From IMG/VR virus record IMGVR_UViG_3300009181_007169: a stretch of DNA of 64,000 nt; one strand, 5' to 3'. The notes under the pieces are model-generated. The model was not told the origin of the DNA. It did no database searches and was given only the letters and a program-made list of their open reading frames with translations. Source of the stretch: an uncultured virus (IMG/VR IMGVR_UViG_3300009181_007169). Its lineage: Duplodnaviria; Heunggongvirae; Uroviricota; Caudoviricetes. The stretch's first letter is position 1. Each line of letters opens with the position of its first letter. This document shows positions 21,957 through 59,646 of the stretch, piece by piece. The position numbers were made by a program, and so were the translations under genes.

Positions 21957-22498
21957 TCTACTGTAAAAATTTTATTCAATGGCTTATAATCTATTTTAGA
22001 AACATCTGGCTGCAATCCTGTATCATGCCACAAAATTCTATTGTTTGGCGCAGCTGCAATGTTGCCATTGTCTAAAAATAAAATGTGACAGCATTTTGCT
22101 ATGCCTGGATGATCAGAATATTCAGAATCATAAAAATCCACTGTAGTGAAGTAAGTGGCATCATATTTAATTCTTTTTTCGCCCGAATAATATTCACATC
22201 TTAAATACTTTAAATAATCATAAGTGATATTAGAAACATGAAAACTAAAAGCATCATAAGTGACTAAATTTTCTAAATTCATTTTTTCATAATCTTTTTT
22301 CAATACTAAAGAATGAACGGGAAGTTTGGAAAACATTGCTCCATGTTCTGTTAAAACATGAAATTGCAGCACCTGCCCTCTAGTGCTACTAATAGCAAAA
22401 GCTTTAGCTTTAATCAAAGCATCAGATTGTGTAAAGTTGGTTAAAAATTCTTTTTTCACATAACATTCGAAATGGGGAATATTACAATTTAATGTCAT
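21953..22498 (-). CDS. Conserved hypothetical phage protein
   Basis: LN.NIP...VKKEFL...GAMF..LP.H...H...LDNGN.AA.PNNR..W pattern familiar from phage hypothetical proteins. Confidence 0.6.
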   Translation of the reverse strand: MTLNCNIPHFECYVKKEFLTNFTQSDALIKAKAFAISSTRGQVLQFHVLTEHGAMFSKLPVHSLVLKKDYEKMNLENLVTYDAFSFHVSNITYDYLKYLRCEYYSGEKRIKYDATYFTTVDFYDSEYSDHPGIAKCCHILFLDNGNIAAAPNNRILWHDTGLQPDVSKIDYKPLNKIFTVE

Positions 22499-22545
22499 AT
22501 TTTATTTTTACAGGTTTATTAAAAAAATGTTTTAAATAACTTAAT

Positions 22546-23400
22546 ATGGGTAAAATTCCTTATGTTGGACTAAGAATGACAGTAACAGAGCTTAAAAAAT
22601 ATTTGGAAGCTTTGTCTTTTACTACTTTTAAACCACAATTTACAGTGGTTCATCACACAGCCTCACCCAATCTTTCTCAAAGACCTAATGGATTCACTGA
22701 TCAACATTTGCTTAACTTAAAGTATTATTATGAAAATGTTATGAACTGGAATGGTGCTCCTCACTTTTTTGTTGACGATAAAGGCATAATTGTTTTCCAA
22801 GCTTTAAATAAACCTGGAGTGCATGCAAAAAGCTATAATTCGAACTCATGGGGGATTGAAATGCTCGGTGATTACGACACATCTACTGATTTTAATTCGC
22901 TTAGGGCAAAAGAAATTTTCGAAAACACTCATGAGCTTGTAGGATTTCTATGCCACTTTTTAAAAGTAGATCCAACTTCATTAAAGTTTCACAGAGATGA
23001 CCCATTGACGAACAAAACATGTCCAGGCAAATTAGTGGATAAACCAACATTCATTAAAGAAGTTAATAAATTTTACCAAATCTATAATGGTGATGGAGTG
23101 GATTCATGGACAAATCCTGTATTTGAAATTACTTTTGAATCAAATGTTTTTATTTGGTCACAAACTAGAGTAGAAAATTCAAGAACCATTATTCCAGCAA
23201 GAGCTTTTATCAATAAATTAATGCCCAAAAACTTTGCGTTAACCAAGTTAGGTGATAATGTAATTTGGATGAATGGCTTAAAGGGTTACTCCACACCTGT
23301 GGCAGAAGTGGATGAAGCTGGTAATGCATGGATTTTCTTAAGAAATGTTTGCGAAAAAACAGGGGCAAAATTTGAACTGGTTAGAGCAAAAAAATTGTAA
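22546..23400 (+). CDS. N-acetylmuramoyl-L-alanine amidase (Amidase_2 family), probable endolysin
   Basis: VVHHTA, HFFV, HA..YN..SWGIEM.G, FHRD, KTCPG zinc-amidase motifs. Confidence 0.88.
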   Translation: MGKIPYVGLRMTVTELKKYLEALSFTTFKPQFTVVHHTASPNLSQRPNGFTDQHLLNLKYYYENVMNWNGAPHFFVDDKGIIVFQALNKPGVHAKSYNSNSWGIEMLGDYDTSTDFNSLRAKEIFENTHELVGFLCHFLKVDPTSLKFHRDDPLTNKTCPGKLVDKPTFIKEVNKFYQIYNGDGVDSWTNPVFEITFESNVFIWSQTRVENSRTIIPARAFINKLMPKNFALTKLGDNVIWMNGLKGYSTPVAEVDEAGNAWIFLRNVCEKTGAKFELVRAKKL

Positions 23401-23409
23401 AATAAATTT

Positions 23410-23718
23410 ATGAAATTTAACTCATCTACACAATCTGAAAAAGCTTTAACTAAAGAAGAATTTAATAATTATGCACAGCTTCGTTCTGGGGTATTAAACT
23501 TGAAAGGCAAGCGCTCTGACATATTTGACATGTTGAGAAATGTAGAAAAACAAATGGCTTCTTTGCAAGAAGAATTTAGAGCTAATCAAGAAATGATAGA
23601 AAAACTTGAAATGGAATTTCAAACATTTATTGATGACCTTGGTAAGAAATATGAATTGGGAAATGGGCTATTTAACATTTCAGAAAATGCACCACACACA
23701 ATTGAGCTGGTCTCATAA
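23410..23718 (+). CDS. Hypothetical coiled-coil protein
   Basis: 102-aa ORF directly after the amidase. Confidence 0.6.
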   Translation: MKFNSSTQSEKALTKEEFNNYAQLRSGVLNLKGKRSDIFDMLRNVEKQMASLQEEFRANQEMIEKLEMEFQTFIDDLGKKYELGNGLFNISENAPHTIELVS

Positions 23719-23825
23719 TTTGTTTTGTGTGAAGGTAATCAAATGACCATCAAATAAAAAAAGAGAATTTTTGAATCTAAAAAACAGAAAAAAAACGTTT
23801 TTATCAAATACCCATCAAATAAAAA

Positions 23826-23899
23826 TGGCACCAGAGCTGGGATTTGAACCCAGGCAAAAAGGTTTCGAAGACCTATTGGAACAACCTACTCTCTCTGGT
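23826..23899 (-). tRNA. trnR: tRNA-Arg(TCG), degenerate D-arm
   Basis: Acceptor ACCAGAG/CTCTGGT, G73-CCA, T-arm CTGGG-TTCAAAT-CCCAG, anticodon loop CTTCGAA. Confidence 0.75.
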
Positions 23900-23902
23900 A
23901 TA

Positions 23903-23976
23903 TGGAGCACGATACTGGACTTGAACCAGTGATCAGGATTTTGCAGACCCTCGCCTTGCCTCTTGGCTAATCGTGC
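23903..23976 (-). tRNA. trnC: tRNA-Cys(GCA)
   Basis: Full cloverleaf, loop CTGCAAA, U73-CCA. Confidence 0.93.
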
Positions 23977-23979
23977 GTT

Positions 23980-24053
23980 TGGGGGCAAATAAAAGAATCG
24001 AACTTTTGTCTTAGATGTATGAAATCTGCGCTCTACCATTAAGCTAATTTGCC
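23980..24053 (-). tRNA. tRNA with CAT anticodon (Met or Ile2)
   Basis: GGCAAAT/ATTTGCC acceptor, loop TTCATAC, unusual C73, encoded CCA. Confidence 0.85.
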
Positions 24054-24058
24054 GAAAT

Positions 24059-24133
24059 TGGTATCCGAATTTGGATTTGAACCAAAAACCTCAATCTTAT
24101 ATAGATTATGCTCTGCCATTGAGCTACTCGGAT
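24059..24133 (-). tRNA. trnI: tRNA-Ile(TAT) with A at position 33
   Basis: Cloverleaf, stem TAATC/GATTG, loop TATATAA, A73-CCA. Confidence 0.75.
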
Positions 24134-24134
24134 A

Positions 24135-24221
24135 TGGCTGAGGAACCACGATTCGAACGTGGACAAGCAAATATGTCTCTAGGGTCAAAACCTAGCGTGT
24201 TACCAATTACACTATTCCTCA
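24135..24221 (-). tRNA. trnQ: tRNA-Gln(TTG) with long variable arm
   Basis: U1-A72, G73, loop TTTTGAC, 16-nt variable region AGACATATTTGCTTGT. Confidence 0.88.
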
Positions 24222-24227
24222 GTAAAA

Positions 24228-24301
24228 TGGTGTTGCCCGAAGGAATTGAACCTTCGCCTTCCCCTGCAGTGGGACGCTCTACCAACTGAGCTAGAGACAA
24301 C
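24228..24301 (-). tRNA. tRNA-like gene of undetermined identity (shortened anticodon arm)
   Basis: Canonical D-arm (TAGCTCAGTTGGTAGAGC), T-arm and CCA; anticodon arm TCCC-ACTGCAG-GGGA has only 4 bp. Confidence 0.65.
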
Positions 24302-24308
24302 ATAAACT

Positions 24309-24395
24309 TGGCGGAAGCGGAGAGATTCGAACTCTCAAGACCTTATCAGCCCAGCCGTTTTCAAGACGGTTTATCACACCTATGACAGCACTTCC
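24309..24395 (-). tRNA. trnS: tRNA-Ser(TGA)
   Basis: GGAAGTG/CGCTTCC, G73-CCA, loop CTTGAAA, long variable arm. Confidence 0.9.
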
Positions 24396-24886
24396 TTTAT
24401 TTTTAATTTACTATCGCTTACTTTTTCCAAAATAATTATACCGCGAGAAACCTCTGCATGATGGTTTGGGCAGATAGCAAACATATTTCCTATTTTATAT
24501 TCACCACCTTCTTTTCCAGGTATGTGTCTATGAATATCATAAGTGATATTATAGTTGCATCCCTCAACCATACAAGATGTAATAGCAAACTCAGTCAAAA
24601 GTATTGACAATCTGAGTTTAGATTTATTATTCCATACATTTCCATCTTTGCGGTAATGAATTCCACAACGGCTTTTATTTGAACAACTACGACTACAAAA
24701 TGTAGATTTTGAACTATCTGGTTTGAAAAAATTTTGACACACTGGGCATTTCTTTTCTGCAAGTTTATTTGTTTTTTTAGATGGATTACAACTAGAACAA
24801 TAAAATTTTATTTGTGCTTTTATTTGAAATGGTCTGCGATAAATTTCATTCGAGCAGATTGAGCATTGAGTGTTTGGTTTTCTCAT
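24380..24886 (-). mobile_element. Free-standing HNH homing endonuclease with N-terminal Zn fingers inside the tRNA array
   Basis: MRKPNTQCSIC..YCSSC..CPVC..FCSRSC; C-terminal DIHRHIPGKEGG.Y...NMFAICPNHHAEV. Start moved to ATG 24886 because the track start lies inside tRNA-Ser(GCT). Confidence 0.85.
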
Positions 24887-24950
24887 ATGTGAATATTCAA
24901 AACTTAATAAAACCACTCCTGCACAGAGCCAACTGGTCACTCCCCGTATA

Positions 24951-25037
24951 TGGAGGAAGGCACTGGAATTGAACCAGAGACCTTTCAGTCCGAAATGTTT
25001 AGCAAACATTCGCCAAAACCATTCAGCATTACCTTCC
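24951..25037 (-). tRNA. trnS: tRNA-Ser(GCT)
   Basis: GGAAGGT/GCCTTCC, loop TTGCTAA, long variable arm, CCA. Confidence 0.9.
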
Positions 25038-25047
25038 TTAAAAAATT

Positions 25048-25123
25048 TGGTGGATTCCCAGAGAATTGAACTCTATCCTAAGCGTCTTCAGCGCTTCGTG
25101 CACACCAGCTACACCTGAAATCC
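25048..25123 (-). tRNA. trnF: tRNA-Phe(GAA)
   Basis: Stem AAGCG/CGCTT, loop CTGAAGA, A73-CCA. Confidence 0.92.
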
Positions 25124-25127
25124 ATAT

Positions 25128-25203
25128 TGGAGCGATATGTCAGACTTGAACTGACACAATCTGGTTGGAAGCCAGGTATGCTAACCATTAACATCAATAT
25201 CGC
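25128..25203 (-). tRNA. trnG: tRNA-Gly(TCC)
   Basis: GCGATAT/ATATCGC, loop CTTCCAA, U73-CCA. Confidence 0.93.
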
Positions 25204-25214
25204 TCATTATTTTA

Positions 25215-25226
25215 TTGTCAAAGTAC
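25215..25226 (-). promoter_or_regulatory. boxA-like element upstream of tRNA array 1
   Basis: GTACTTTGACAA, similar to rrn boxA; a related 12-mer sits at the same place before array 2. Confidence 0.45.
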
Positions 25227-25228
25227 AT

Positions 25229-25267
25229 AAAAAAATCCCTGAAGTTTTTTTGGTCTTCAGGGATTTT
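25229..25267 (-). terminator. Intrinsic terminator (attenuator) between leader peptide 1 and tRNA array 1
   Basis: AAAATCCCTGAAG-10-nt loop-CTTCAGGGA-TTTTTTT. Confidence 0.85.
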
Positions 25268-25294
25268 GGTGAAAATTTTGCTTACAGCAGGATT

Positions 25295-25360
25295 TTAGCC
25301 ACTACCCCCTTGGGTTGACCACATAAAACATCCAATACTGCCCTGCAAATTTAATTTCAT
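25295..25360 (-). CDS. Putative attenuator leader peptide 1, MKLNLQGSIGCFMWSTQGGSG (21 aa)
   Basis: AAGGAA RBS at 25367-25372, ATG 25360, TAA 25295-25297; codons match array-1 tRNAs; terminator follows. Confidence 0.8.
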   Translation of the reverse strand: MKLNLQGSIGCFMWSTQGGSG

Positions 25361-25449
25361 AATTATTTCCTTATTATATATATACGACACAATCTCCTAT
25401 TTGTTCTGTAAAAATTAGGTTTTTTTATTTTTTTCTTGAAATTCAGATT

Positions 25450-27195
25450 GTGTGGTATAAATTTGCAAAAATAATTATAGCTGGCAAAGAACATATAATA
25501 AGGAAGATTGCAGAATATTTTAGCGATCAAGGGCAGGATCCTTCCCAACTTAGTGAGAGACTAAATGAGCTTGATAAAGCAAATAAACTTCCAATTATAG
25601 AATTAAGAAAAGATGGAGTGATGTTTGATAATAACATTTACACAGATTTTCTTAAATTTACCGAAGCTGTAGATGCTCTTCATACTATATTAGTTTTCTC
25701 CAAACAAATAAAAGAACAAAAAGAATTAACTAAAGAAAAAATTGATTTTGTACCAGGAAAGATACAAGTAGTTGCCTGCAATGATGTCAATGACGCAATT
25801 AGATATGGCGCAGGAACAAGTTGGTGTATATCACAGCCTGGAAATACAGAATTTCAATCCTATAAGAATAAATACCAATCTACTTTTTACTATGTAAATG
25901 ATGGCACCAGACCACCAGAAGATCCATTATCAAGAGTGATGGTTGATATGCAAGCAAATGGTATCGTAAAACTTACGGACAAAAATAATCGCACTGGGAC
26001 AATAGCTGAGTTTGACGAAGATCATGAAGCTTATTTTGATTATCTTAGAAAAAACGGTGTAGATACATCACAATTTGTAAATAAAACTCTAACAGAAGAA
26101 GAAATAAATGAAAATGAATTATTAGAATACAGAAATGTTACACCAAATTGGTTTGAAAAGTTACCATTAAAATTACAACTTAAATATATAGGAAGAGGAC
26201 ATCTTTTAACGGATGAACAATTAAAATTCATTATTAATTTACCAACAATATCTGGATATTTGATTGAACAATATCTTAATACAGGAGTTAGTATTCCTCA
26301 AAGTCAAAAAGATATGCTTTTTGGCAAAAAACAATACAAAGACACTTATGACAGAAGAAGAGCAATTGCAATAAAAGAGATTAAAGAAGAGTTTGGGAAT
26401 GATAAGTATAGTCTAACAAGATATGCTTTAGAACATGGAGATTTTGAATTAATTGATGAAATCATAAATGAAAAAGACATAAGAAATTTTTATGATATAA
26501 AAGCACCCGAAGAAATGCTGAGATACTTGTTCAGCAAGGGATTAAGTGCAGATAATGTAGCTTGGGAGTGGGTTTCAGACAATTCACTATCTGAAAATTT
26601 TATTGAAGAATTTCAAGATCGTCTTGGTTGGTTTGAGATTTCACGAATGCAAATACTATCTGAAGATTTTATCAGAAGATACAAAGATGATGTGTATTGG
26701 AATTATATTTCCTCTTACCAAAATCTATCTGGAGATTTTATTTTAGAATTTGCTAAACGTTTAGACATGGATAAAGTCTTGAGGAATTATCCAATACCTG
26801 AAAAAATAATTAGAAATTTTGTAGACCGTGTGATTTGGGATGAAATTCCACGGCGTCAAAAACTATCTGAGGATTTCATCAAAGATTTTGCAGGTCGTTT
26901 GGGTTGGGGTAATATTTCACATTACCAAACACTATCCGAAGATTTTATCAGAAAATTCAAAGATAAGGTGAATTGGTATAATATTTCAAAAAAACAAACA
27001 CTATCTGAAGAATTCATTCGTGAATTTGCAGATAGTGTGGATTGGCGCGGGATTTCATTCAATCAAACACTATCGGAGGATTTCATCAAAGAATTTGCAG
27101 AACGTTTGAGTTGGGATGGGATTTCACAAAACCCTAAAATCTCAAGACAAACCAAACTCAATGTTTATTACAAGCTAAAATTTAAAAAACCCTAA
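25450..27195 (+). CDS. Tryptophan-repeat protein, paralog 1
   Basis: YGAGTSWCIS N-terminal domain; C-terminal ~22-aa repeats W..IS..Q.LSE.FI..F.D.V; MWYKFAK start. Confidence 0.75.
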   Translation: MWYKFAKIIIAGKEHIIRKIAEYFSDQGQDPSQLSERLNELDKANKLPIIELRKDGVMFDNNIYTDFLKFTEAVDALHTILVFSKQIKEQKELTKEKIDFVPGKIQVVACNDVNDAIRYGAGTSWCISQPGNTEFQSYKNKYQSTFYYVNDGTRPPEDPLSRVMVDMQANGIVKLTDKNNRTGTIAEFDEDHEAYFDYLRKNGVDTSQFVNKTLTEEEINENELLEYRNVTPNWFEKLPLKLQLKYIGRGHLLTDEQLKFIINLPTISGYLIEQYLNTGVSIPQSQKDMLFGKKQYKDTYDRRRAIAIKEIKEEFGNDKYSLTRYALEHGDFELIDEIINEKDIRNFYDIKAPEEMLRYLFSKGLSADNVAWEWVSDNSLSENFIEEFQDRLGWFEISRMQILSEDFIRRYKDDVYWNYISSYQNLSGDFILEFAKRLDMDKVLRNYPIPEKIIRNFVDRVIWDEIPRRQKLSEDFIKDFAGRLGWGNISHYQTLSEDFIRKFKDKVNWYNISKKQTLSEEFIREFADSVDWRGISFNQTLSEDFIKEFAERLSWDGISQNPKISRQTKLNVYYKLKFKKP

Positions 27196-27265
27196 CATCT
27201 CAGACCAAACCAAACACAATCTGAAAGCAGCAGGATATCCGATACAAATTTAGGAAATTCAGATT

Positions 27266-28978
27266 GTGTGGTATAGATTTGCAAAAATAATTATAGCTGG
27301 CAAAGAACATATAATAAGGAAGATTGCAGATTATTTCAGTAATCAAGGGCACAATACTTCCCAACTTAGTGAGAGACTAAATGAGCTTGATAAAGCAAAT
27401 AAACTTCCAATTATAGAATTAAGAAAAGATGGAGTGATGTTCGATAATAAATTTTACACAGATTTTCTTGAATTTACCGAAGCAGTGGACGCTCTTTATA
27501 CTGAATTGATTTTTTTAAAACAAAAAAAAGAACAAAAAGAATTAACTAAAGAAAAAATTAATTTTACACCTGGAGAGATACAAGTATTTGCTTGTAATAG
27601 TGTTAACGATACAATTAGATATGGTGCAGGAACATCATGGTGTATATCACAACCTGGAAATACAATGTTTCAATCCTACAGGGATAATTACCAATCCACT
27701 TTTTACTATGTAAGTGATGGGACAAGACCACCAGAAGATCCATTATCAAGAGTGATGGTTGATATGCAAGCAAAAGGTATCGTAAAACTTACTGACAAAA
27801 ATAATCAAACTGGGACAATAGCTGAGTTTGGCAATGATTATGAAACTTATTTTGATTATCTTAGACAAAATGGTGTAGATACATCAATATTTGTAAATAA
27901 ACCCGTAACAGAAGAAGAAAGAAAAGAAAATGAATTATTAGGAAAAAGAAATGTTACACCAAATTGGTTTGAAGAGTTGCCAGCAGAATATAAATCTAAA
28001 TATATAGGCAGGGGGCATCTTTTAACTGATCAACAATTAGAGTCTATTATTAATTTACAATCTGTGACATCAAATAATACAGCTGATTTTTTGATTGAAC
28101 AATATCTTAATACAGGAATTAGTATCCCTCCAAGCCAAAAAGCTATGCTTTTTGGCAATAATCAATACAGAGCCACTTATAACAGAAGAAGAAACATTGC
28201 AATAGAAGAGATTAAAAAACATCTTGGGAATGATGATTGGCGTGTAAAAGACTATGCTTTGAGATCTGGAGATTTTGAATTAATTGATGAAATCATAAAT
28301 GAAAAAGGTATAAATAATTATAATTTTTATTATGTTAACGCACCAGAAGAAATGCTGAGATACTTGTTTAGTAAGGGATTAAGTGCAGATCGTGTAGCTT
28401 GGGATTTGATTTCAAGCCGCCCACTATTGTCTGAAGAATTCATTCGTGAATTTGCAGACAGTTTGGATTGGGACATAATTTCACAATACCAAACACTATC
28501 TGGAGATTTTATTTTAGATTTCGAAGACAGTTTAGACATGGATAAAGTCTTGAAGAATTATCCAATACCTGAAAAAGTAATTAGAACATTTGCAGACCGC
28601 GTGGATTGGAATGAAATTTCACGTAAACAACCACTATCTGAAGAATTCATCAGAGAATTTAAAAACCGTGTGGATTGGTGGAGTATTTCAGCTAAACAAA
28701 AATTGTCTGAGGATTTCATCATAGAATTTGCAGACCGTGTGAATTGGAAGGAAATTTCATGGCACCAAAAATTGTCTGAGGATTTGATCAAAGATTTTGC
28801 AGACCGTGTGGATTGGACTGTGATTTCACGTAACCAAAAATTGTCTGAAAGATTCATCAAAGAATTTGCAGAATTTGGTCGCATAAATCCTTATAGTCTT
28901 GAAATTAATCCAAATATATCAGATAAGATTAAAAAACAGTTGGGGACCTTATTCCCGTGGTATAGACCCTCAACTTAG
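27266..28978 (+). CDS. Tryptophan-repeat protein, paralog 2 (tandem duplicate)
   Basis: Near-identical N-terminal DNA and protein to the 25450 ORF; same repeats. Confidence 0.75.
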   Translation: MWYRFAKIIIAGKEHIIRKIADYFSNQGHNTSQLSERLNELDKANKLPIIELRKDGVMFDNKFYTDFLEFTEAVDALYTELIFLKQKKEQKELTKEKINFTPGEIQVFACNSVNDTIRYGAGTSWCISQPGNTMFQSYRDNYQSTFYYVSDGTRPPEDPLSRVMVDMQAKGIVKLTDKNNQTGTIAEFGNDYETYFDYLRQNGVDTSIFVNKPVTEEERKENELLGKRNVTPNWFEELPAEYKSKYIGRGHLLTDQQLESIINLQSVTSNNTADFLIEQYLNTGISIPPSQKAMLFGNNQYRATYNRRRNIAIEEIKKHLGNDDWRVKDYALRSGDFELIDEIINEKGINNYNFYYVNAPEEMLRYLFSKGLSADRVAWDLISSRPLLSEEFIREFADSLDWDIISQYQTLSGDFILDFEDSLDMDKVLKNYPIPEKVIRTFADRVDWNEISRKQPLSEEFIREFKNRVDWWSISAKQKLSEDFIIEFADRVNWKEISWHQKLSEDLIKDFADRVDWTVISRNQKLSERFIKEFAEFGRINPYSLEINPNISDKIKKQLGTLFPWYRPST

Positions 28979-29013
28979 CAGGATATCCAATAAAAAATTA
29001 GTAAATTCAGATT

Positions 29014-29337
29014 GTGTGGTATAGATATTCTCAAAAAAAAATTCTACCTCCGGTACATGAAGGTTGCAAATGCTACATTGAACAAATGCCAGGGGGGAAC
29101 ACAATCTGGCAATTTACTGGAAACACTTGTGAAACCTGTAAAATTTTAGGAAGAGAATATAACCAAAAACAAAATTCGCCTGCTAACGAGCCTGCGCTTA
29201 TAAAGCCACCTATACCTGAACCACCAGCAGTTATTGAAGAGCCTTTATTTAATGAAGAAAAAAATACACAACAAATGAATTTCATGAACTTTAAATATGT
29301 TCCAAGAATATTTTATGATTTAAAAAATGGTCAGTGA
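29014..29337 (+). CDS. Small MWY-start protein with PPxHxxCxC motif (MuF-like Zn motif)
   Basis: LPPVHEGCKCYI...CETC; same upstream sequence as the two paralogs. Confidence 0.55.
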   Translation: MWYRYSQKKILPPVHEGCKCYIEQMPGGNTIWQFTGNTCETCKILGREYNQKQNSPANEPALIKPPIPEPPAVIEEPLFNEEKNTQQMNFMNFKYVPRIFYDLKNGQ

Positions 29338-29404
29338 GGTGGGATTTGAACCCACGCGCCTCTGGGTCACAACCAAAGAGCTCTACCATTTAAGCTACTC
29401 ACTT
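29328..29404 (-). tRNA. trnH: tRNA-His(GTG), atypical acceptor end
   Basis: Loop TTGTGAC, canonical D and T arms, A73-CCA, no encoded G-1:C73. Confidence 0.85.
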
Positions 29405-29407
29405 ATG

Positions 29408-29490
29408 TGGTACCGAAGGTGGGATTTGAACCCACACGTCAAAAGACAATAGTTTCTAAGACTATCGCGGCTACATTACGCCACTTCGGT
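29408..29490 (-). tRNA. trnL: tRNA-Leu(TAG)
   Basis: ACCGAAG/CTTCGGT, loop CTTAGAA, long variable arm, A73-CCA. Confidence 0.92.
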
Positions 29491-29494
29491 ATTA

Positions 29495-29573
29495 TGGTGT
29501 AAAATGTGGGATTCGAACCCACCTGATATCCAAGGTGCAAGCTTGGCGACCACCCCCAGCAGTCCCATTTCAC
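29495..29573 (-). tRNA. trnA: tRNA-Ala(TGC)
   Basis: Loop CTTGCAC, G3:U70 identity pair, A73-CCA. Confidence 0.92.
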
Positions 29574-29580
29574 GAAAATT

Positions 29581-29665
29581 TGGTGGGGACAGTAGGACTC
29601 GAACCTACGAAATCTTTCGATAGAAGATTTACAGTCTTCTGCAATTGCCGCTATGCGATATCCCC
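29581..29665 (-). tRNA. trnY: tRNA-Tyr(GTA)
   Basis: Loop CTGTAAA, long variable arm, A73-CCA. Confidence 0.94.
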
Positions 29666-29670
29666 AAACT

Positions 29671-29749
29671 TGGTCTACATGGCTGGATTTGAACCAGCGT
29701 ACTCAATCTCCCAAGGATTGCGAGGTAAGCCAAACTCCTCAACATGTAG
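29671..29749 (-). tRNA. trnP: tRNA-Pro(TGG)
   Basis: C1-G72, A73, loop CTTGGGA. Confidence 0.92.
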
Positions 29750-29848
29750 ATGAATTTTCGGCTGGATGAAGGGCGTCCTTAGTCATCCACTTACGGGTCA
29801 CCACTTAGAGAGAGTTTAATTCAACCTTGGTACCACCACGATATTTAA

Positions 29849-29860
29849 TTGTCAATGTTC
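29849..29860 (-). promoter_or_regulatory. boxA-like element upstream of tRNA array 2
   Basis: GAACATTGACAA immediately after the attenuator terminator. Confidence 0.45.
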
Positions 29861-29865
29861 ATAAT

Positions 29866-29902
29866 AAAAAAACCCCCGAAAGTTTTTGTCCTTCGGGGGT
29901 TT
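29866..29902 (-). terminator. Intrinsic terminator (attenuator) between leader peptide 2 and tRNA array 2
   Basis: AAACCCCCGAAGG-ACAAAAA-CTTTCGGGGG-TTTTTTT. Confidence 0.88.
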
Positions 29903-29938
29903 GTAGCTTGTCAAATACGCGACTAGCCACTACCCCGA
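29893..29938 (-). promoter_or_regulatory. Antiterminator hairpin of attenuator 2
   Basis: TCGGGG/CCCCGA, GTGGCT/AGCTAC and GTC/GAC pairings; sequesters the 5' arm of the terminator and contains the leader stop codon. Confidence 0.75.
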
Positions 29939-29983
29939 TGAGGGTGCGTAGGCTGGATAGAGATGTCGTAGCGAATTTGTCAT
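29930..29983 (-). CDS. Putative attenuator leader peptide 2, MTNSLRHLYPAYAPSSG (17 aa)
   Basis: AAGGAA RBS at 29990-29995, ATG 29983, TAG 29930-29932; codons match array-2 tRNAs. Confidence 0.82.
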   Translation of the reverse strand: MTNSLRHLYPAYAPSSG

Positions 29984-30030
29984 TTTAGTTTCCTTTTTTA
30001 AATATTATGATTATAAGACGTAATTACCTT

Positions 30031-31038
30031 TTAAAAAGTTTCAGTTTTTTTTACTTTTAAAATTCTATCTTTCGTGAAACAAATAGGTTCTTTTTTGATT
30101 GAATTGCTCACCTCTAAGTCATTTTTACCAACAATAGAATGTGTAGAGCTATTGCTATTCCCGAATTGTGTGAAAGGAAGTTTGCTAATTTGAGAGATAT
30201 TATAAATGTGAACTTGAGTTTTCGCACTTCTTTCAATCTTCCTCAAAATCTTATGCAAAGTCTTTGATTTAAAAACTTTTTTGAAAATAATGTCTTTAAA
30301 TTGCTCAGAAAAAATAATGCTATCTCTGAATTCGTAAACATTTCCAACATTTATTTTGAAATTACCCCTAATGTCTTCTGATATCCAGCCTCTTTTAATG
30401 AATGCTAAGGCGTTTTTTTCAATTTCTGTCCACTCTTCTTCACCTCTTGTTATAAACGGATAACGAAACCTAGCAAAAGCAATAAAATTGAGTTCTGCTT
30501 CACTGATGCCATGCTTTTTCATCAATTTATTGCGATTAAACTTAGTCAAGTTCAAAACTTTTGCTTGAAAAACATCTTCTGGCATTAGCTGTGGGGCTAT
30601 TCCCCAATTAAAATTCGTGAAAAAATTTGAGTATTTTTCTTTCAAAAAGAAAAGATTAATCAAAAAAATTGCTCTAGACAGAAATGAACTTTTTTTATGT
30701 AATAATCTTTCTCGAAATGTTGTTTTATCCTTTTCCTTAGGTATTTTCGAATCTAAGCTTGAGCCTGATAATGGACGCAAGCGTTGTGTTTTGCGCTCAT
30801 CCTGATAAATAAGACTAGCATCAGCTTCCAAAAATCCTTCTTTATCCTCAAAAATAGAAATGTAAGGTGGGGATGTATCGTAATTAATAAGATCTATTAC
30901 TTCTGGGACCCCAGGTAATTCAGATGCTAAGTAAATAATTCTTTTTTCTGGCTCATCATCCACTTCATTTTTTTTTGAAATAGCTTTTTCAGACTGTGTT
31001 TTTTCAACTAATTTATTCTCAGATGCAATTTCACTCAT
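30031..31038 (-). CDS. Hypothetical protein (335 aa)
   Basis: Long ORF with a TGTATAAA element 6 nt upstream. Confidence 0.65.
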   Translation of the reverse strand: MSEIASENKLVEKTQSEKAISKKNEVDDEPEKRIIYLASELPGVPEVIDLINYDTSPPYISIFEDKEGFLEADASLIYQDERKTQRLRPLSGSSLDSKIPKEKDKTTFRERLLHKKSSFLSRAIFLINLFFLKEKYSNFFTNFNWGIAPQLMPEDVFQAKVLNLTKFNRNKLMKKHGISEAELNFIAFARFRYPFITRGEEEWTEIEKNALAFIKRGWISEDIRGNFKINVGNVYEFRDSIIFSEQFKDIIFKKVFKSKTLHKILRKIERSAKTQVHIYNISQISKLPFTQFGNSNSSTHSIVGKNDLEVSNSIKKEPICFTKDRILKVKKTETF

Positions 31039-31057
31039 GTACTATTTATACACAATT

Positions 31058-31474
31058 TTACCTTACTCTAAAAAAAGTTGAATAATGATCACCTGTATAA
31101 AAAACTTCACCTTTTTTTCCAATTACCACTCTTTGTGAGCCTGGGAAAGGAAAACCGTTCATTTGATGGACAAATTCTCTATAATATTGAACATCTGTGC
31201 TTACTGGAAGTTTACGTAGGGAATTAGAAAAAAATGTACCATCATTATTGTGGTTTAATTTTTTACCCAATCTAATTCTTTCTACCGTAGGATTGACATC
31301 CATTCTACCTTGGTATATCAACCTTCCAAAATCAATCACTCTTACATTTGGTAAAACATTCACTCGTCCGATAACAGAGTTTATATGTGGTCTGCCAAAA
31401 GTAGCTTGTGAATAAGAAGAAGAAAAAACAGCAAAAAAAGCAGTTAAATTCAATATTGTTTTAGTTATTTTCAT
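31058..31474 (-). CDS. Secreted barnase/RNase Sa-family (guanyl-specific) ribonuclease
   Basis: Signal peptide; F.N..R.LP....YYREF, G.QRVVIG..GEVFYT.DHY.TF with catalytic E, R and H. Confidence 0.85.
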   Translation of the reverse strand: MKITKTILNLTAFFAVFSSSYSQATFGRPHINSVIGRVNVLPNVRVIDFGRLIYQGRMDVNPTVERIRLGKKLNHNNDGTFFSNSLRKLPVSTDVQYYREFVHQMNGFPFPGSQRVVIGKKGEVFYTGDHYSTFFRVR

Positions 31475-31483
31475 TTTTATCCT

Positions 31484-31684
31484 TTACGAAGTAAAATCTG
31501 GAAAAATTCTATGATTTGAATCAACATAACCATGTTCAATTAAAACATCAACGATACAATGTATTTTTGCTTCTTCAATAAGATTTTTTGAAATCCTATC
31601 ATCACAATCTCCATGATCTTCAGATAGAGCAATATTAAAATTGTCATTTACAATATTCAATATTTTGTTGTAAGCTCTAATCAT
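31484..31684 (-). CDS. Hypothetical protein (66 aa)
   Basis: ORF upstream of the RNase in the same operon. Confidence 0.5.
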   Translation of the reverse strand: MIRAYNKILNIVNDNFNIALSEDHGDCDDRISKNLIEEAKIHCIVDVLIEHGYVDSNHRIFPDFTS

Positions 31685-31906
31685 ATTTTATTTTTGTTTA
31701 AAAATTGTTTTTAACCTTCAATTAAGATTGTGTGAGAATATTTACGCCCTTTTCCTTACACTGACGGCATTCTCTATTTTATTATACATATTTTTTTTTC
31801 CTTAGTTCTAATTTAGATTAATTAAGATTAATTAATATATTCTTTTCCTAATTAGTGAAGGTCATTTTTTTTAAGGATTTTTTTTTCTTTCTTGTAAAAT
31901 ATAAAT

Positions 31907-32239
31907 ATGGTTTTTTCAAAATTATTTAAAGCTGCTTCACTTATTCAACACTCTCGACCTGATTTATCGAGTGAATTAAATAAAATTGCACAAGATTTAT
32001 CACAATCTATCGCAAACAACTCAACAGAAAATCTTGGATTAAATCCAAACATTAAAAATTTCGCAAACCCTTCAACACAATCTGAGCAGAAAAAAACACA
32101 TAAAATAACATTCACAGTTGATGTGCCACCTTCTTGGGGGGAATTAGAAATTATGAATAAACTTTTGCCTGTATTAAAACAAATGGACGCAACAGAAAAA
32201 GACTTAGAAATCAAGGGTTACCAGTTTACACAATTTTAA
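31907..32239 (+). CDS. Hypothetical protein with KxA-ending N-terminal leader
   Basis: LFKAASLIQ....SSELNKIAQ. Confidence 0.6.
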   Translation: MVFSKLFKAASLIQHSRPDLSSELNKIAQDLSQSIANNSTENLGLNPNIKNFANPSTQSEQKKTHKITFTVDVPPSWGELEIMNKLLPVLKQMDATEKDLEIKGYQFTQF

Positions 32240-57867: not shown

Positions 57868-59646
57868 TTATTCCTCCATCCCAGTAACTTTTGGTGTAGA
57901 CCATCCAAGATTCTTTAAAGCATTTTGGATTTCAGATGCACCGCTTAAATCTGCGCTTGCTCCTCTTACTGATGGGTTGAAGGCAATCCCAGAAGAGGCA
58001 GTTCGTACAGAGCTTGAAGAAGCTGCGTACTTTTCAGCGTGAGCTGCTGCTGAATTAAGCATAAGTTGTGTTTGTTTGATCATTGCTTTAACAGTCAAAC
58101 CGTCTTGAAGCCATCCTTCAACAAGTGAATCAGCTTCATGTGCGGGAAGAATACCTGCTGTTGCAAGTTTTGTAGTCATGGAATAAGCTGTCTTGAGTCT
58201 GGCTTTGTAAAGCTCAGCTTCTTTTGCCATTTTTTCTTCAGCTTCGATAACTAAGTCATCAACGTGAAGTTTGTTTTCTGCTTTGTCTTCCATATCTTCT
58301 TCCTCATCCTTTTCAGCGTATGATGCACCTTTCATCAATTTCCTTAGCATAGCTACGTATTGATCATCTGTTGACGCATGTTTTGCGTGGTGCTCTTCTT
58401 CCAATTGATCTTCAGTTGTCACCATAGTTTCTTTTTTGCTTGTGGTTTTCTTATCTGGATCAGTAATATTAGTGTTTTGAACGAATCCATTTTCAGTATT
58501 CATAACACCTGTTTGTGTATAATGCTCTCTATCTTCACTTGCTGTTTTAATTGCCTTGAATAAATCCAAGCCTTCAGCATAGGTAAGTTTGCCAAGATCT
58601 TCATCTTCTACACCTGCTTGTCGAAGAGCAAATGCAAGCGCTTCCTCAGCGGCATCTGCATCAAATTCTCCAAGCTGAGAAGCATTAACTGTTTTCTTCA
58701 TTGGAATTTTCATTTCTGAAGGAATTTTTGGACCTTTACCTTCGTAAAGTTCTTGATTTCCTTGTGATGGAATTTCAAACGGATTGAAATCTAATTCAAA
58801 ATCTGCGGCATCTGTTGGGGTGCCATCAAATTTGAATGTTTTCAATGATTCTTTGAGTCCTAAGTCTGGTTTTAAACCATCTACTAATGTAGTAAAATTA
58901 GGAATTTCAATGTCTGCATAATTTAGAGTGTCGATATCTGAATCTTTAGATCCGCCGAAACTTGTAGTATCATAAAAAGTTTCTTCAGTGTATTGTTCAC
59001 TTTTATCGTGATCAAATCCTTCAGCCTTTTTAACGTGATCTACATCTTCTTCAGCGATAGATGCCAGAATAGTTTTTCTAAGTGCCTTTCGAGCTTCTTT
59101 GTTATTCATGTTTTTTTCTCCTTGAGGGTTTTCTTTGTTGTGACCCATTGCATGATCCTTAGATTGTGCATCAGTGTCACCCAGAACGCTTTCGAGAGCT
59201 TTTTCTACATCTCTAATTTTGTCTGCAGGGACTGTGATGTGGATCGTAGCGATTTCATCTTCACCTACTTCGTCATCGTCATCTTGAGCGTCATCTTCGT
59301 AATCTTCATCGTCATCTGAAAAATCAATTTCTTCATCTTCTTCTTCCAACTCATCACGATCTTCATCTTTGTATTCTTCGTCGAAGTTATCGTCGTCATC
59401 GGTCATTTTACCAATAAAATCTTCAGGCATATCATCTTCATCCAAACCCTCTGATTTAAGTAATTTTGGAAGAAACATATCTCTGATTGATGTTGCCACT
59501 TCTTCAGCTTCTTCTTTATCCATTGCTACTTTTCTCATGAGATCAGATTTACACGCAGTTAATTCATCTTTGTCAGATGAAACGATTTCGTGTATTTTCA
59601 TTGCCCTTTTTATTTGATTTAATTGTTCGCTTTGACCGTTTATCAT
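57868..59646 (-). CDS. Prohead scaffolding protein
   Basis: Very acidic, low complexity, helical C-terminus, between protease and capsid genes. Confidence 0.65.
   Translation of the reverse strand: MINGQSEQLNQIKRAMKIHEIVSSDKDELTACKSDLMRKVAMDKEEAEEVATSIRDMFLPKLLKSEGLDEDDMPEDFIGKMTDDDDNFDEEYKDEDRDELEEEDEEIDFSDDDEDYEDDAQDDDDEVGEDEIATIHITVPADKIRDVEKALESVLGDTDAQSKDHAMGHNKENPQGEKNMNNKEARKALRKTILASIAEEDVDHVKKAEGFDHDKSEQYTEETFYDTTSFGGSKDSDIDTLNYADIEIPNFTTLVDGLKPDLGLKESLKTFKFDGTPTDAADFELDFNPFEIPSQGNQELYEGKGPKIPSEMKIPMKKTVNASQLGEFDADAAEEALAFALRQAGVEDEDLGKLTYAEGLDLFKAIKTASEDREHYTQTGVMNTENGFVQNTNITDPDKKTTSKKETMVTTEDQLEEEHHAKHASTDDQYVAMLRKLMKGASYAEKDEEEDMEDKAENKLHVDDLVIEAEEKMAKEAELYKARLKTAYSMTTKLATAGILPAHEADSLVEGWLQDGLTVKAMIKQTQLMLNSAAAHAEKYAASSSSVRTASSGIAFNPSVRGASADLSGASEIQNALKNLGWSTPKVTGMEE

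Follow-up and report, generated by a model that had tools for sequence, protein, structure and literature searches.

A putative ribosome-mediated attenuator ahead of the tRNA arrays of an uncultured large phage

Introduction

Why should a phage place an intrinsic transcription terminator, preceded by a short open reading frame (ORF), in front of its own transfer RNA (tRNA) genes? The question is raised by a stretch of DNA of 64,000 nucleotides (nt) from an uncultured virus of the Caudoviricetes (IMG/VR record IMGVR_UViG_3300009181_007169), which was analysed as a whole and is called the window below. The element in question, cassette 2, comprises a Shine-Dalgarno (SD) box, a leader ORF and a terminator, and the genes behind that terminator are five tRNA genes (array 2), not genes for biosynthesis, transport or aminoacyl-tRNA synthetases. 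A preliminary description, made from the sequence alone, had interpreted the element as an attenuator whose leader lists the tRNAs of the array. Our analysis supports this interpretation as far as computation goes: cassette 2 is probably a ribosome-mediated attenuator that opens the tRNA array when its own codons are decoded slowly. Anatomy, conservation, composition match and thermodynamic plausibility were computed; translation of the leader ORF, the promoter, the kinetic competition and the response to tRNA supply are what we infer. What phage tRNA genes are for, and how they are controlled, has been under debate for decades; codon compensation and escape from tRNA-targeting defence are the roles currently considered (e.g. 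PMC10264068, PMC10802454).

The leader of cassette 2 is composed largely of the amino acids of array 2

The elements of cassette 2 and the genes of array 2 all lie on the minus strand:

30010-30019 (-), GTCTTATAAT, at the candidate promoter
30004-30015 (-), candidate -10 region, TATAAT and then CATAAT, a putative promoter by its sequence
29990-29995 (-), SD box AAGGAA, 7 nt ahead of the ATG
29930-29983 (-), leader ORF 2, MTNSLRHLYPAYAPSSG plus TAG stop, 17 codons, read from the sequence and intact in all relatives
29909-29982 (-), long-range pairing of leader codons 1-7 with the apex of the antiterminator (untranslated state), from the minimum free energy (MFE) fold of the full-length leader
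29925-29954 (-), hairpin 1:2 (anti-antiterminator), 11 pairs, -13.1 kcal/mol, by folding
29924-29936 (-), segment-2 motif GGGGTAGTGGCTA, containing the TAG stop, with two perfect copies in the window
29890-29943 (-), antiterminator 2:3, 19 pairs, -25.0 kcal/mol, using the terminator 5' arm, by folding
29863-29902 (-), intrinsic terminator 3:4, 13-pair stem, 7-nt loop, U7, -20.8 kcal/mol, by folding
29843-29855 (-), box TTGACAATTAAAT past the U-run, common to both cassettes and all relatives
29750-29842 (-), 93-nt spacer from the box to tRNA-Pro, in window-type genomes only
29671-29749 (-), tRNA-Pro-TGG (ARAGORN)
29581-29665 (-), tRNA-Tyr-GTA (ARAGORN)
29495-29573 (-), tRNA-Ala-TGC (ARAGORN)
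29408-29490 (-), tRNA-Leu-TAG (ARAGORN)
29328-29404 (-), tRNA-His-GTG (ARAGORN)
29328-29749 (-), array 2 as a whole, Pro-Tyr-Ala-Leu-His (ARAGORN, Rfam)

Leader ORF 2 consists of the codons ATG ACA AAT TCG CTA CGA CAT CTC TAT CCA GCC TAC GCA CCC TCA TCG GGG TAG. On the minus strand, codons 5-14 are exactly those listed in the preliminary description, and comparison with the tRNAs found by ARAGORN confirms that nine of these ten specify Leu, His, Tyr, Pro or Ala and that none of the five is missing. CTA, CCA, GCA and TAC are the Watson-Crick cognates of four array-2 anticodons. That the leader lists the tRNAs of array 2 is therefore correct in that all five amino acids are covered, and inexact in that Arg intrudes at codon 6.

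Such a composition is rare in the window. In its six-frame translation, at least nine of ten residues from Pro, Tyr, Ala, Leu and His together with all five kinds were found in one of 69,426 stop-free 10-mers, which is leader 2 itself. Two of the 511 ATG-initiated ORFs of 12-40 codons reach 9/10; one is leader 2, and the second is a low-complexity frame rich in Leu that has three kinds only. At the level of codons, the match of leader 2 is 6/10 under strict wobble, equalled by 144 of the 69,426 10-mers, and 9/10 if U34 reads whole four-codon boxes, as in 5 of the 69,426. Both Leu codons of the leader are CTN, the box of tRNA-Leu-TAG, and TTA plus TTG account for 62% of the Leu codons in the long ORFs of the window. 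Tested against the amino acids of the window's other array (array 1, described below), leader 2 matches at only three of ten positions, two of them being Ala, which is common to both arrays.

Alternative folds of the leader RNA

The three mutually exclusive hairpins that had been drawn by eye were all recovered by folding, with energies of -13.1, -25.0 and -20.8 kcal/mol for 1:2, 2:3 and 3:4. Hairpin 1:2 is formed by the strands AGCC.AC..ACCCU and GGGGU.GU.GGCU. The antiterminator joins CCU and UCGGGG to CCCCGA and AGG in the terminator 5' arm, and these pairs are stacked on GUGGCU.GUCG / UGAC.AGCUAC. The terminator reads AAACCCCCGAAGG-ACAAAAA-CUUUCGGGGGUUU followed by more U's; its stem-loop extends from 29902 to 29870 with 7 of 13 pairs being G-C, and it is one of only two terminator-like sites within 8.5 kb. 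Segment 2 (nt 46-59) includes the TAG stop (leader nt 52-54), as the preliminary description had stated. The MFE fold of the full-length leader RNA contains hairpin 1:2 and the terminator, with codons 1-7 paired to GUCGCGUAUUUGACA. This long-range 5' pairing and hairpin 1:2 jointly amount to -19.1 kcal/mol, and the pairing of codons 1-7 would account for the complete nucleotide conservation of codons 1-4. When the terminator 3' arm is omitted, the MFE fold is antiterminator 2:3. The antiterminator is energetically competitive with the terminator (-25.0 vs -20.8 kcal/mol), a point on which the earlier proposal had been made to depend. The leader region as a whole folds better than 200 of 200 shuffles (z -3.42).

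The influence of a translating ribosome was modelled at equilibrium by masking 28 nt round each A-site codon in a transcript cut ahead of the terminator 3' arm. In this model the probability (P) that the terminator 5' arm is paired upstream was 0.92-0.93 with the A site at codons 3-10 of cassette 2, 0.68 at codon 11, 0.48 at codon 12 and 0.18-0.25 at codons 13-18, the stop included. These values suggest that a ribosome held anywhere from Leu5 to Tyr12 permits the antiterminator, and that a ribosome at the end of the leader prevents it; the model is thus in line with the earlier proposal that a ribosome which finishes the leader would block the antiterminator. Three of four other cassette-2 variants gave the same profile, and variant L006 was less clean at codons 14-18. 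In 300 dinucleotide shuffles of the sequence upstream of the arm, folded with the mask at codon 9, none was as stable and none paired the terminator arm as well.

A paralogous cassette precedes array 1

The window carries a second cassette of this kind, cassette 1, ahead of the other tRNA array, again on the minus strand:

25367-25372 (-), SD box AAGGAA, at the same 7-nt spacing as in cassette 2
25295-25360 (-), leader ORF 1, MKLNLQGSIGCFMWSTQGGSG plus stop, upstream of array 1
25296-25308 (-), copy of the motif, identical GGGGTAGTGGCTA
25296-25321 (-), hairpin 1:2, -10.3 kcal/mol, by folding
25259-25309 (-), antiterminator, -16.5 kcal/mol, by folding
25225-25267 (-), terminator plus U-run, -17.1 kcal/mol, by folding
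25209-25221 (-), box TTGACAATAAAAT, 5 nt ahead of tRNA-Gly
23826-25203 (-), array 1 as a whole (ARAGORN, Rfam), its first part being Gly-TCC, Phe-GAA and Ser-GCT (24955-25037)
24380-25009 (-), HNH endonuclease ORF (phrog_1271) inside array 1, between Ser-GCT and Ser-TGA
after the HNH ORF (-), the remainder of array 1: Ser-TGA, Ala-TGC, Gln-TTG, Ile-TAT, Met-CAT, Cys-GCA and Arg-TCG

Sequence comparison and a reading of the folds show that the two cassettes share the motif GGGGTAGTGGCT, a TATAAT-type box, the SD spacing, the terminator and the box after the U-run. Exactly two perfect copies of the motif occur in the window, one in each cassette, with 0.23 matches expected at up to two mismatches. 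It is read in different frames by leaders 1 and 2, and the two stops fall at different points within it, which indicates that the conserved entity is the RNA and not the peptide. In each hairpin 1:2 these motif nucleotides find a different partner in the upstream coding sequence, and in each predicted antiterminator they pair with the terminator arm. Between the terminator stems of the two cassettes, C:G is replaced by U:A at two positions, and C:G by A:U at one position between stem classes.

In leader 1 the amino acids are mostly those of the other array. Within codons 6-21, 14 of 16 residues belong to the array-1 set of the window, and 15 of 16 to the set of those relatives that have a tRNA-Trp; against the array-2 set the count is 0/16. 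Two AGT codons are cognate to tRNA-Ser-GCT. If unpaired codons alone are considered, array amino acids make up 5/6 in cassette 2 (codons 5-10) and 8/8 in cassette 1 (codons 6-13). The gene upstream of cassette 1 is divergent (25450-27195, +), so the terminator of cassette 1 ends no gene, and an array-1 transcript that starts at the promoter-like box before leader 1 must cross it.

ARAGORN reported 14 tRNA genes in the window, all on the minus strand and in two arrays. A fifteenth (24955-25037) was added by Rfam; it is the tRNA-Ser-GCT, which ARAGORN finds at a lowered threshold and misses at default. The last gene of array 1, tRNA-Arg-TCG (23826-23899, -), is homologous to the tRNA-Trp-CCA that relatives have at the same array position (61/75 identical). 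Its anticodon loop is CUUCGAA, as against CUCCAAA in the tRNA-Trp of relatives. The tRNA-Arg-TCG apparently derives from tRNA-Trp by an anticodon shift. Anticodons differ at two more genes of array 1: that of the neighbouring tRNA-Ile is TAT (GAT in relatives), and that of tRNA-Ala is TGC (CGC in some relatives).

Both cassettes are conserved in relatives

Relatives were sought among viral, metagenome and bacterial-genome contigs by the pattern of motif, U-run and box. The pattern matched one viral contig of 347 kb (G001) and 13 metagenome contigs, of which three were chance matches and one was identical to the window; both cassettes are kept in nine related lake-metagenome contigs and in G001. 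Four matches in bacterial genomes, which had neither a terminator nor a tRNA, were discarded as chance, as were L002, L011, L014 and L018. The relatives provide six distinct cassette-2 and eight distinct cassette-1 sequences.

SD, ATG and reading frame are kept in all six cassette-2 and all eight cassette-1 variants. The GGAA of the SD box is present in 6/6 cassette-2 variants, and the adjoining 66-68 nt upstream are merely 64-77% identical. Leader 2 occurs in three peptide forms, ...SLRHLYPAYAP..., ...SLLHSYPAYAP... and ...SLRHPYPAYAP..., each with nine of ten core residues in the set; the underlying codon changes are synonymous (CTA/CTT, CCA/CCG, GCC/GCT) or, for R6L and L8P/S, multi-base changes at codons 6 and 8. 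In one lineage leader 1 has an extra in-frame Val codon and swapped Ile and Met positions, changes that preserve composition rather than sequence. One in-frame codon is the only length change in either ORF. Between the window and contig L001, 2 of 59 nt differ from codon 9 to the start of the terminator; identity is 47% at the four-fold sites of the neighbouring gene (15 sites) and 66% in the intergenic stretch upstream of the SD.

A strong terminator hairpin is predicted in 14/14 cassette variants (-14.4 to -20.8 kcal/mol). The helices of either cassette type are compatible with all of its variants; in the cassette-2 antiterminator 114 of 114 cells are paired across the six variants, with two pairs changed one-sidedly and none two-sidedly. 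G001 allows a comparison with other tRNA genes. It has 24 tRNA matches, 16 of them in the two arrays; the eight outside the arrays (Asp, Asn, Thr; Met, Glu; Lys; Arg; Met) stand directly behind CGTATAAT- or TGTGTATAAT-type boxes, without leader and without terminator. Perfect copies of the 12-base motif occur in G001 at the two cassettes only. As the stand-alone tRNA genes are leaderless and the motif is restricted to the arrays, the cassettes are specific to the two large arrays.

A similar leader in Bacillus phage G

By its major head protein, the closest cultured phage is Bacillus phage G (NC_023719.1; 49% identity across 98% of the protein), and this phage possesses an arrangement of the same kind. 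Its gp86 (58381-58515), annotated as hypothetical, consists of 44 amino acids (aa), MMKCSWFEFDTDFTDVFYCEYTFYSLYTFLDIRKQLQKSRGCLT. A strong SD lies before the gene and a hairpin with a U-run after it, ending 5 nt ahead of tRNA-Cys (58381-58590 for the whole unit); the tRNA cluster behind comprises Cys, Asp, Phe, Tyr, Glu, Thr, Ser-TGA and Trp, with small genes interspersed. Residues 4-29 of gp86 are drawn in 24 of 26 cases from C, D, F, Y, E, T, S and W, all eight being present. Of the 48,101 26-residue windows examined no other reaches 24, and an acidic run reaches 23 with five kinds. When each of the three leaders is compared with each array, the match is 0.88-0.94 on the diagonal and at most 0.46 off the diagonal.

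In the model, ribosomes as far as codon 27 permit a predicted gp86 antiterminator, formed by codons 32-37 and the terminator arm, and ribosomes at codons 30-38 weaken it. The modelled geometry of this switch appears less clear than that of the window cassettes, notably at the stop codon. The phage G leader has no sequence similarity to the window cassettes and no relatives among cultured phages beyond phage G. The second tRNA cluster of phage G (410-414 kb) has no comparable leader and no comparable terminator. In Bacillus subtilis transcription and translation are reportedly poorly coupled, which may limit ribosome-mediated attenuation in such hosts. Since gp86 shows the same logic in a cultivable phage, the idea is directly testable. 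A term search of the phage G genome paper (PMC12484599) found none of the words attenuat-, leader, terminator and gp86.

A separate observation in phage G concerns a suppressor-type tRNA with the anticodon TTA beside tRNA-Met (L034:2433-2506, ~411.9 kb in NC_023719.1). This tRNA is already mentioned in PMC12484599.

Promoters, the conserved box and transcripts

The (G)TCGTATAAT-CATAAT arrangement at the candidate promoter of cassette 2 is also found ahead of cassette 1 and of the stand-alone tRNA genes of G001. In the window, GTCKTATAAT has 9 matches with 11.6 expected. As a general promoter motif of the window or phage, TTGACAAT is not enriched (46 matches vs 45.6 expected). The box TTGACAAT(T/A)AAAT behind each terminator could be a -10-type element or a processing signal, and its T(T/A)AAAT part could act as a weak second promoter that bypasses the switch. 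TTGACA cannot be the -35 of the array, because the tRNA begins 13 nt later in most genomes.

The distance from the box to the first tRNA differs between genomes. In L001, L006 and L008 the tRNA starts about 13 nt past the box. Within the 93-nt spacer of window-type genomes there is a hairpin, UGGAUGA...UCAUCCA; Rfam gave no match to the spacer at E up to 1. In L021 the box and tRNA-Tyr are about 900 nt apart, and no tRNA-Pro was detected.

Among the 24 public runs listed for the stretch, the DNA runs containing it are labelled freshwater or lake-water metagenomes, and only one run is an RNA library (0.07 of words). Contigs of the RNA library cover 18 of 30 bins at a depth of 2-10, some of them over the leader region. 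One contig (29713-29903) extends from the base of the terminator through the U-run into tRNA-Pro; its ends and strand are not shown, and it may stem from DNA carry-over.

In G001, a repeated terminator-promoter module (CCCCCTCCAAAGGGGAGG...TTTTTTCCAGGTTTAACA...TATAAT) lies at 48-64 kb ahead of several small genes (L022, L024, L025). It is probably an early-gene expression cassette.

Proposed mechanism

The following sequence of events would account for these features. A promoter about 25 nt upstream would start a transcript carrying the SD and the 17-codon leader, whose RNA could adopt either of two folds, hairpin 1:2 with terminator 3:4, or antiterminator 2:3, in which the conserved GGGGUAGUGGCU segment would pair with the terminator 5' arm. 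A ribosome reading through to the TAG would cover segment 2, the terminator would form and RNA polymerase would stop 110 nt ahead of tRNA-Pro. A ribosome lingering at codons 5-12 (Leu, Arg, His, Leu, Tyr, Pro, Ala, Tyr) would leave segment 2 free and would in addition occupy segment 1 or the 5' pairing, so that the antiterminator would form and transcription would proceed into the tRNA-Pro, Tyr, Ala, Leu and His genes. As the leader is written in the amino acids of the array, and largely in its codons, slow decoding of any of them would switch the array on, and the tRNAs made would relieve the stall, a negative feedback. Cassette 1 would do likewise for array 1 with a different leader.

More broadly, giant phages might possess a closed-loop sensor of decoding capacity, in which OR-gated arrays stand behind codon-sampling test ORFs, as a widespread and hitherto undescribed principle of tRNA control and counter-defence. 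We regard this generalisation as a serious possibility while leaning slightly towards doubt. If it is true, any one slowly read codon fires the array, which goes off again once phage tRNAs have restored decoding. Triggers might be, for example, host tRNAs that are scarce for phage codon usage, degradation during host shut-off or anticodon-nuclease defence, and the logic would recur, unrelated in sequence, in distant phages including the cultivated Bacillus phage G. Already an attenuator with such a leader would mean that the phage measures the decoding of exactly those codons for which it makes tRNAs on demand, which would be direct evidence for a role of phage tRNAs in decoding supply. Leader-peptide attenuation, known for amino-acid operons and synthetases, would be extended to tRNA genes, and for the first time the RNA species that is sensed would also be the one that is produced.

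Weighing the evidence

Several observations speak against an attenuator of this kind. In the equilibrium model the truncated cassette-2 leader already adopts the antiterminator without a ribosome (P 0.93), so that termination of an untranslated or fully translated leader requires a kinetic trap, for which hairpin 1:2 and the 5' pairing are the candidates. The cassette-1 antiterminator is weak, 26 of 300 shuffles being as stable and 50 of 300 pairing the arm as well, and with the ribosome at the stop a CAGGG within leader 1 can pair with the arm (P 0.72). No covariation was found within either cassette type, with 0 two-sided changes in the 19, 18, 13 and 26 pairs counted; structural support therefore comes from energies, one-sided changes and the comparison of the paralogs.

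The composition match has its own weak points. The A-Y-A-P match of leader 2 and the G-G-S-G match of leader 1 sit in stems rich in G+C, a composition that favours Ala, Pro and Gly codons and so affects part of the match. The tRNA for the Arg at codon 6 of leader 2, tRNA-Arg-TCG, occurs only in the window's other array. Leader 1 includes a Thr codon and no Ala codon, and in the window it has kept its Trp codon though the Trp-type tRNA now has the anticodon TCG. With one to three codons per amino acid, the leaders stay below classical attenuators. In L008, L016 and L019 array 2 is reduced to Pro and Tyr, with an HNH ORF behind them, and yet codons for Leu, His and Ala persist in the leader. The Val codon and tRNA-Val agree in five of six informative contigs (three with both, two with neither) and disagree in L016 (without-with), an association that is not significant. 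The box TTGACAAT(T/A)AAAT is conserved after both terminators in all relatives and has no role in the attenuator model. In most genomes its T(T/A)AAAT lies 5-8 nt ahead of the first tRNA, like the -10 of a stand-alone tRNA. Finally, the bridging RNA-library contig is merely compatible with readthrough and is not counted as transcript evidence.

The box is the starting point of the main rival explanation, by which an unregulated short unit always terminates, the array has its own promoter at TTGACAAT(T/A)AAAT and the composition match is without regulatory meaning. Both the conservation of the box and its position before the first tRNA in L001, L006, L008 and cassette 1, which is that of TATAAT in G001, fit such a promoter. 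However, the (GATTGTG)TCG-TATAAT context of the leaders and other tRNAs is missing at the box, no -35-like hexamer is found at the right distance, and about 100 nt separate the box from tRNA-Pro in window-type genomes. An unregulated terminator accounts neither for the array-specific composition of three unrelated leaders nor for an antiterminator that overlaps the terminator arm (0/300 shuffles), nor for paralogous cassettes that keep an RNA motif yet encode unrelated peptides in different frames, and we consider this explanation quite unlikely. Still further from the data, and in our view hardly credible, is the notion that the hairpin is simply the terminator of the upstream 335-aa gene and the ORF a random open frame. 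It is true that only 47 nt separate the end of that gene from the leader ATG and that it lacks another terminator, but cassette 1 shows the same architecture behind a divergent gene, and the composition statistics, a conservation far above that of neighbouring neutral sites and the phage G instance would all have to be coincidental.

If regulation is accepted, it need not involve ribosomes. The RNA might be a switch in which a protein, a tRNA in the manner of a T-box or another ligand decides, the ORF being incidental. The greater part of the ORF (codons 1-4 and 9-18) falls in paired segments whose conservation alone would keep the frame open, the two leaders end at different positions of the motif, and on our own reading the UGGC of the motif could in principle pair with a tRNA 3' end. 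On the other hand, SD and ATG persist, always 7 nt apart, although the flank upstream of them diverges, the sole change in ORF length is an in-frame codon, and the array amino acids concentrate in the unpaired codons of both leaders (5/6 and 8/8). There is no T-box or riboswitch match in Rfam at E up to 1, no Stem I and no specifier, and one RNA could hardly recognise 5 to 11 different tRNAs; a switch unread by ribosomes therefore seems improbable. The ribosome-mediated switch could also be the same and its evolved signal another, namely amino-acid starvation or a general slowdown of translation, with the array merely a late or stress-induced unit. Stalls caused by a missing amino acid and by a missing tRNA are indistinguishable to the switch, and classical attenuators read the levels of charged tRNA, which drop in starvation. 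Yet each of the three leaders keeps to the amino acids that its own array serves and leaves out those of the other array, a restriction that a general sensor does not need, and extra tRNA would not relieve amino-acid starvation, which makes a starvation signal unlikely.

Comparison with known systems

Multivalent leader-peptide attenuators are known from the enterobacterial amino-acid operons thr, ilvGMEDA and ilvBN, and leader-peptide attenuation also from trp, his, leu and pheA. Like these, cassette 2 combines a promoter-proximal SD and a short ORF rich in regulatory codons with overlapping hairpins 1:2, 2:3 and 3:4, the last of them an intrinsic terminator; its stop lies where a ribosome that has completed the leader would block the antiterminator, and more than one amino acid would be sensed. 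Unlike these, the cassettes are phage-borne and gate tRNA genes instead of genes for biosynthetic enzymes, and there is no sequence similarity. Where operon leaders use runs of codons, the cassette leaders sample several amino acids, five in cassette 2 and about nine in cassette 1, each by one to three codons, and the product, tRNA, is itself the molecule whose shortage would be read. A full-length match of Rfam family RF00514 (His_leader) covers 29864-29966 (-), with 26.8 bits against a gathering score of 49 (E 0.5). Membership was rejected because the score lies under the gathering threshold. RF00514 is the sole cis-regulatory Rfam family touched; cassette 1 has no match to it, and leader 2 has a single His codon. 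The cassette-2 element is a member of no curated family.

Attenuation of pheST through the pheM leader controls the phenylalanyl-tRNA synthetase of E. coli. As proposed for the cassettes, leader-peptide attenuation there ties part of the decoding apparatus to the decoding of its own cognate codons; the system differs in that it controls a synthetase, senses one amino acid and is cellular. T-box riboswitches likewise report on a specific tRNA by the choice between terminator and antiterminator, but they bind the tRNA directly, without an ORF and one tRNA each. The T-box family RF00230 gave no match at E up to 1 on either strand of positions 22000-32000, where no Stem I or specifier structure was seen, and no other riboswitch family in Rfam matched at E up to 1. 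Phage G gp86 shares with the cassettes a short ORF in the amino acids of the cluster followed by an intrinsic terminator; its leader has 44 codons, as against 17-22 in the window cassettes, and its terminator lies 5 nt before the first tRNA.

A full-text search, with subscription journals outside its range, returned no paper linking leader peptides or attenuation to phage tRNA genes or tRNA operons. A term search found neither 'tRNA gene' nor 'tRNA operon' in PMC2965389, and in PMC3082878 it found a tRNA operon named only with regard to supercoiling.

Source of the sequences and neighbouring genes

The window is a piece of a large phage genome. Its G+C content is 29-40%, and its genes encode an amidase-type endolysin, HNH endonucleases, a head maturation protease domain, head-tail connector proteins and a major head protein. 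In a lake-metagenome contig of 239,548 bases (L007, L010) both cassette stretches are identical to those of the window. A search of cultured-phage DNA gave matches at the tRNA level only (97 records, 0 covering at least 80%). A protein-guided search of viral contigs with the 335-aa and 570-aa neighbours found no relatives, and a word scan with tRNA-Pro found one contig only, which was already known.

The arrays appear to be hot spots for homing endonucleases. The phrog_1271 HNH ORF of array 1 overlaps tRNA-Ser-GCT, and the Ser-GCT and Ser-TGA genes are adjacent in relatives. A different HNH ORF occupies array 2 in L019 (L019:3330-4106) in place of the Leu, His and Ala tRNAs, as in other relatives.

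Upstream of cassette 2 lies the 335-aa gene (31038-30031, -), whose end is 47 nt ahead of the leader-2 ATG and which has no other terminator of its own. Two genes upstream of leader 2, at 31058-31474 (-), a barnase-type ribonuclease domain is encoded (PF00545, E 1.5e-6); the 66-aa ORF beside it (31484-31684) has no Barstar match and no other Pfam match. Array 2 and cassette 1 are separated by a tandem pair of paralogous, internally repetitive genes (581 and 570 aa, phrog_3532) on the plus strand (25450-28978). As the arrays are only about 350 nt apart in G001, this tandem pair is taken as an insertion in the lineage of the window, and metagenome contigs contain many joints between the repeats.

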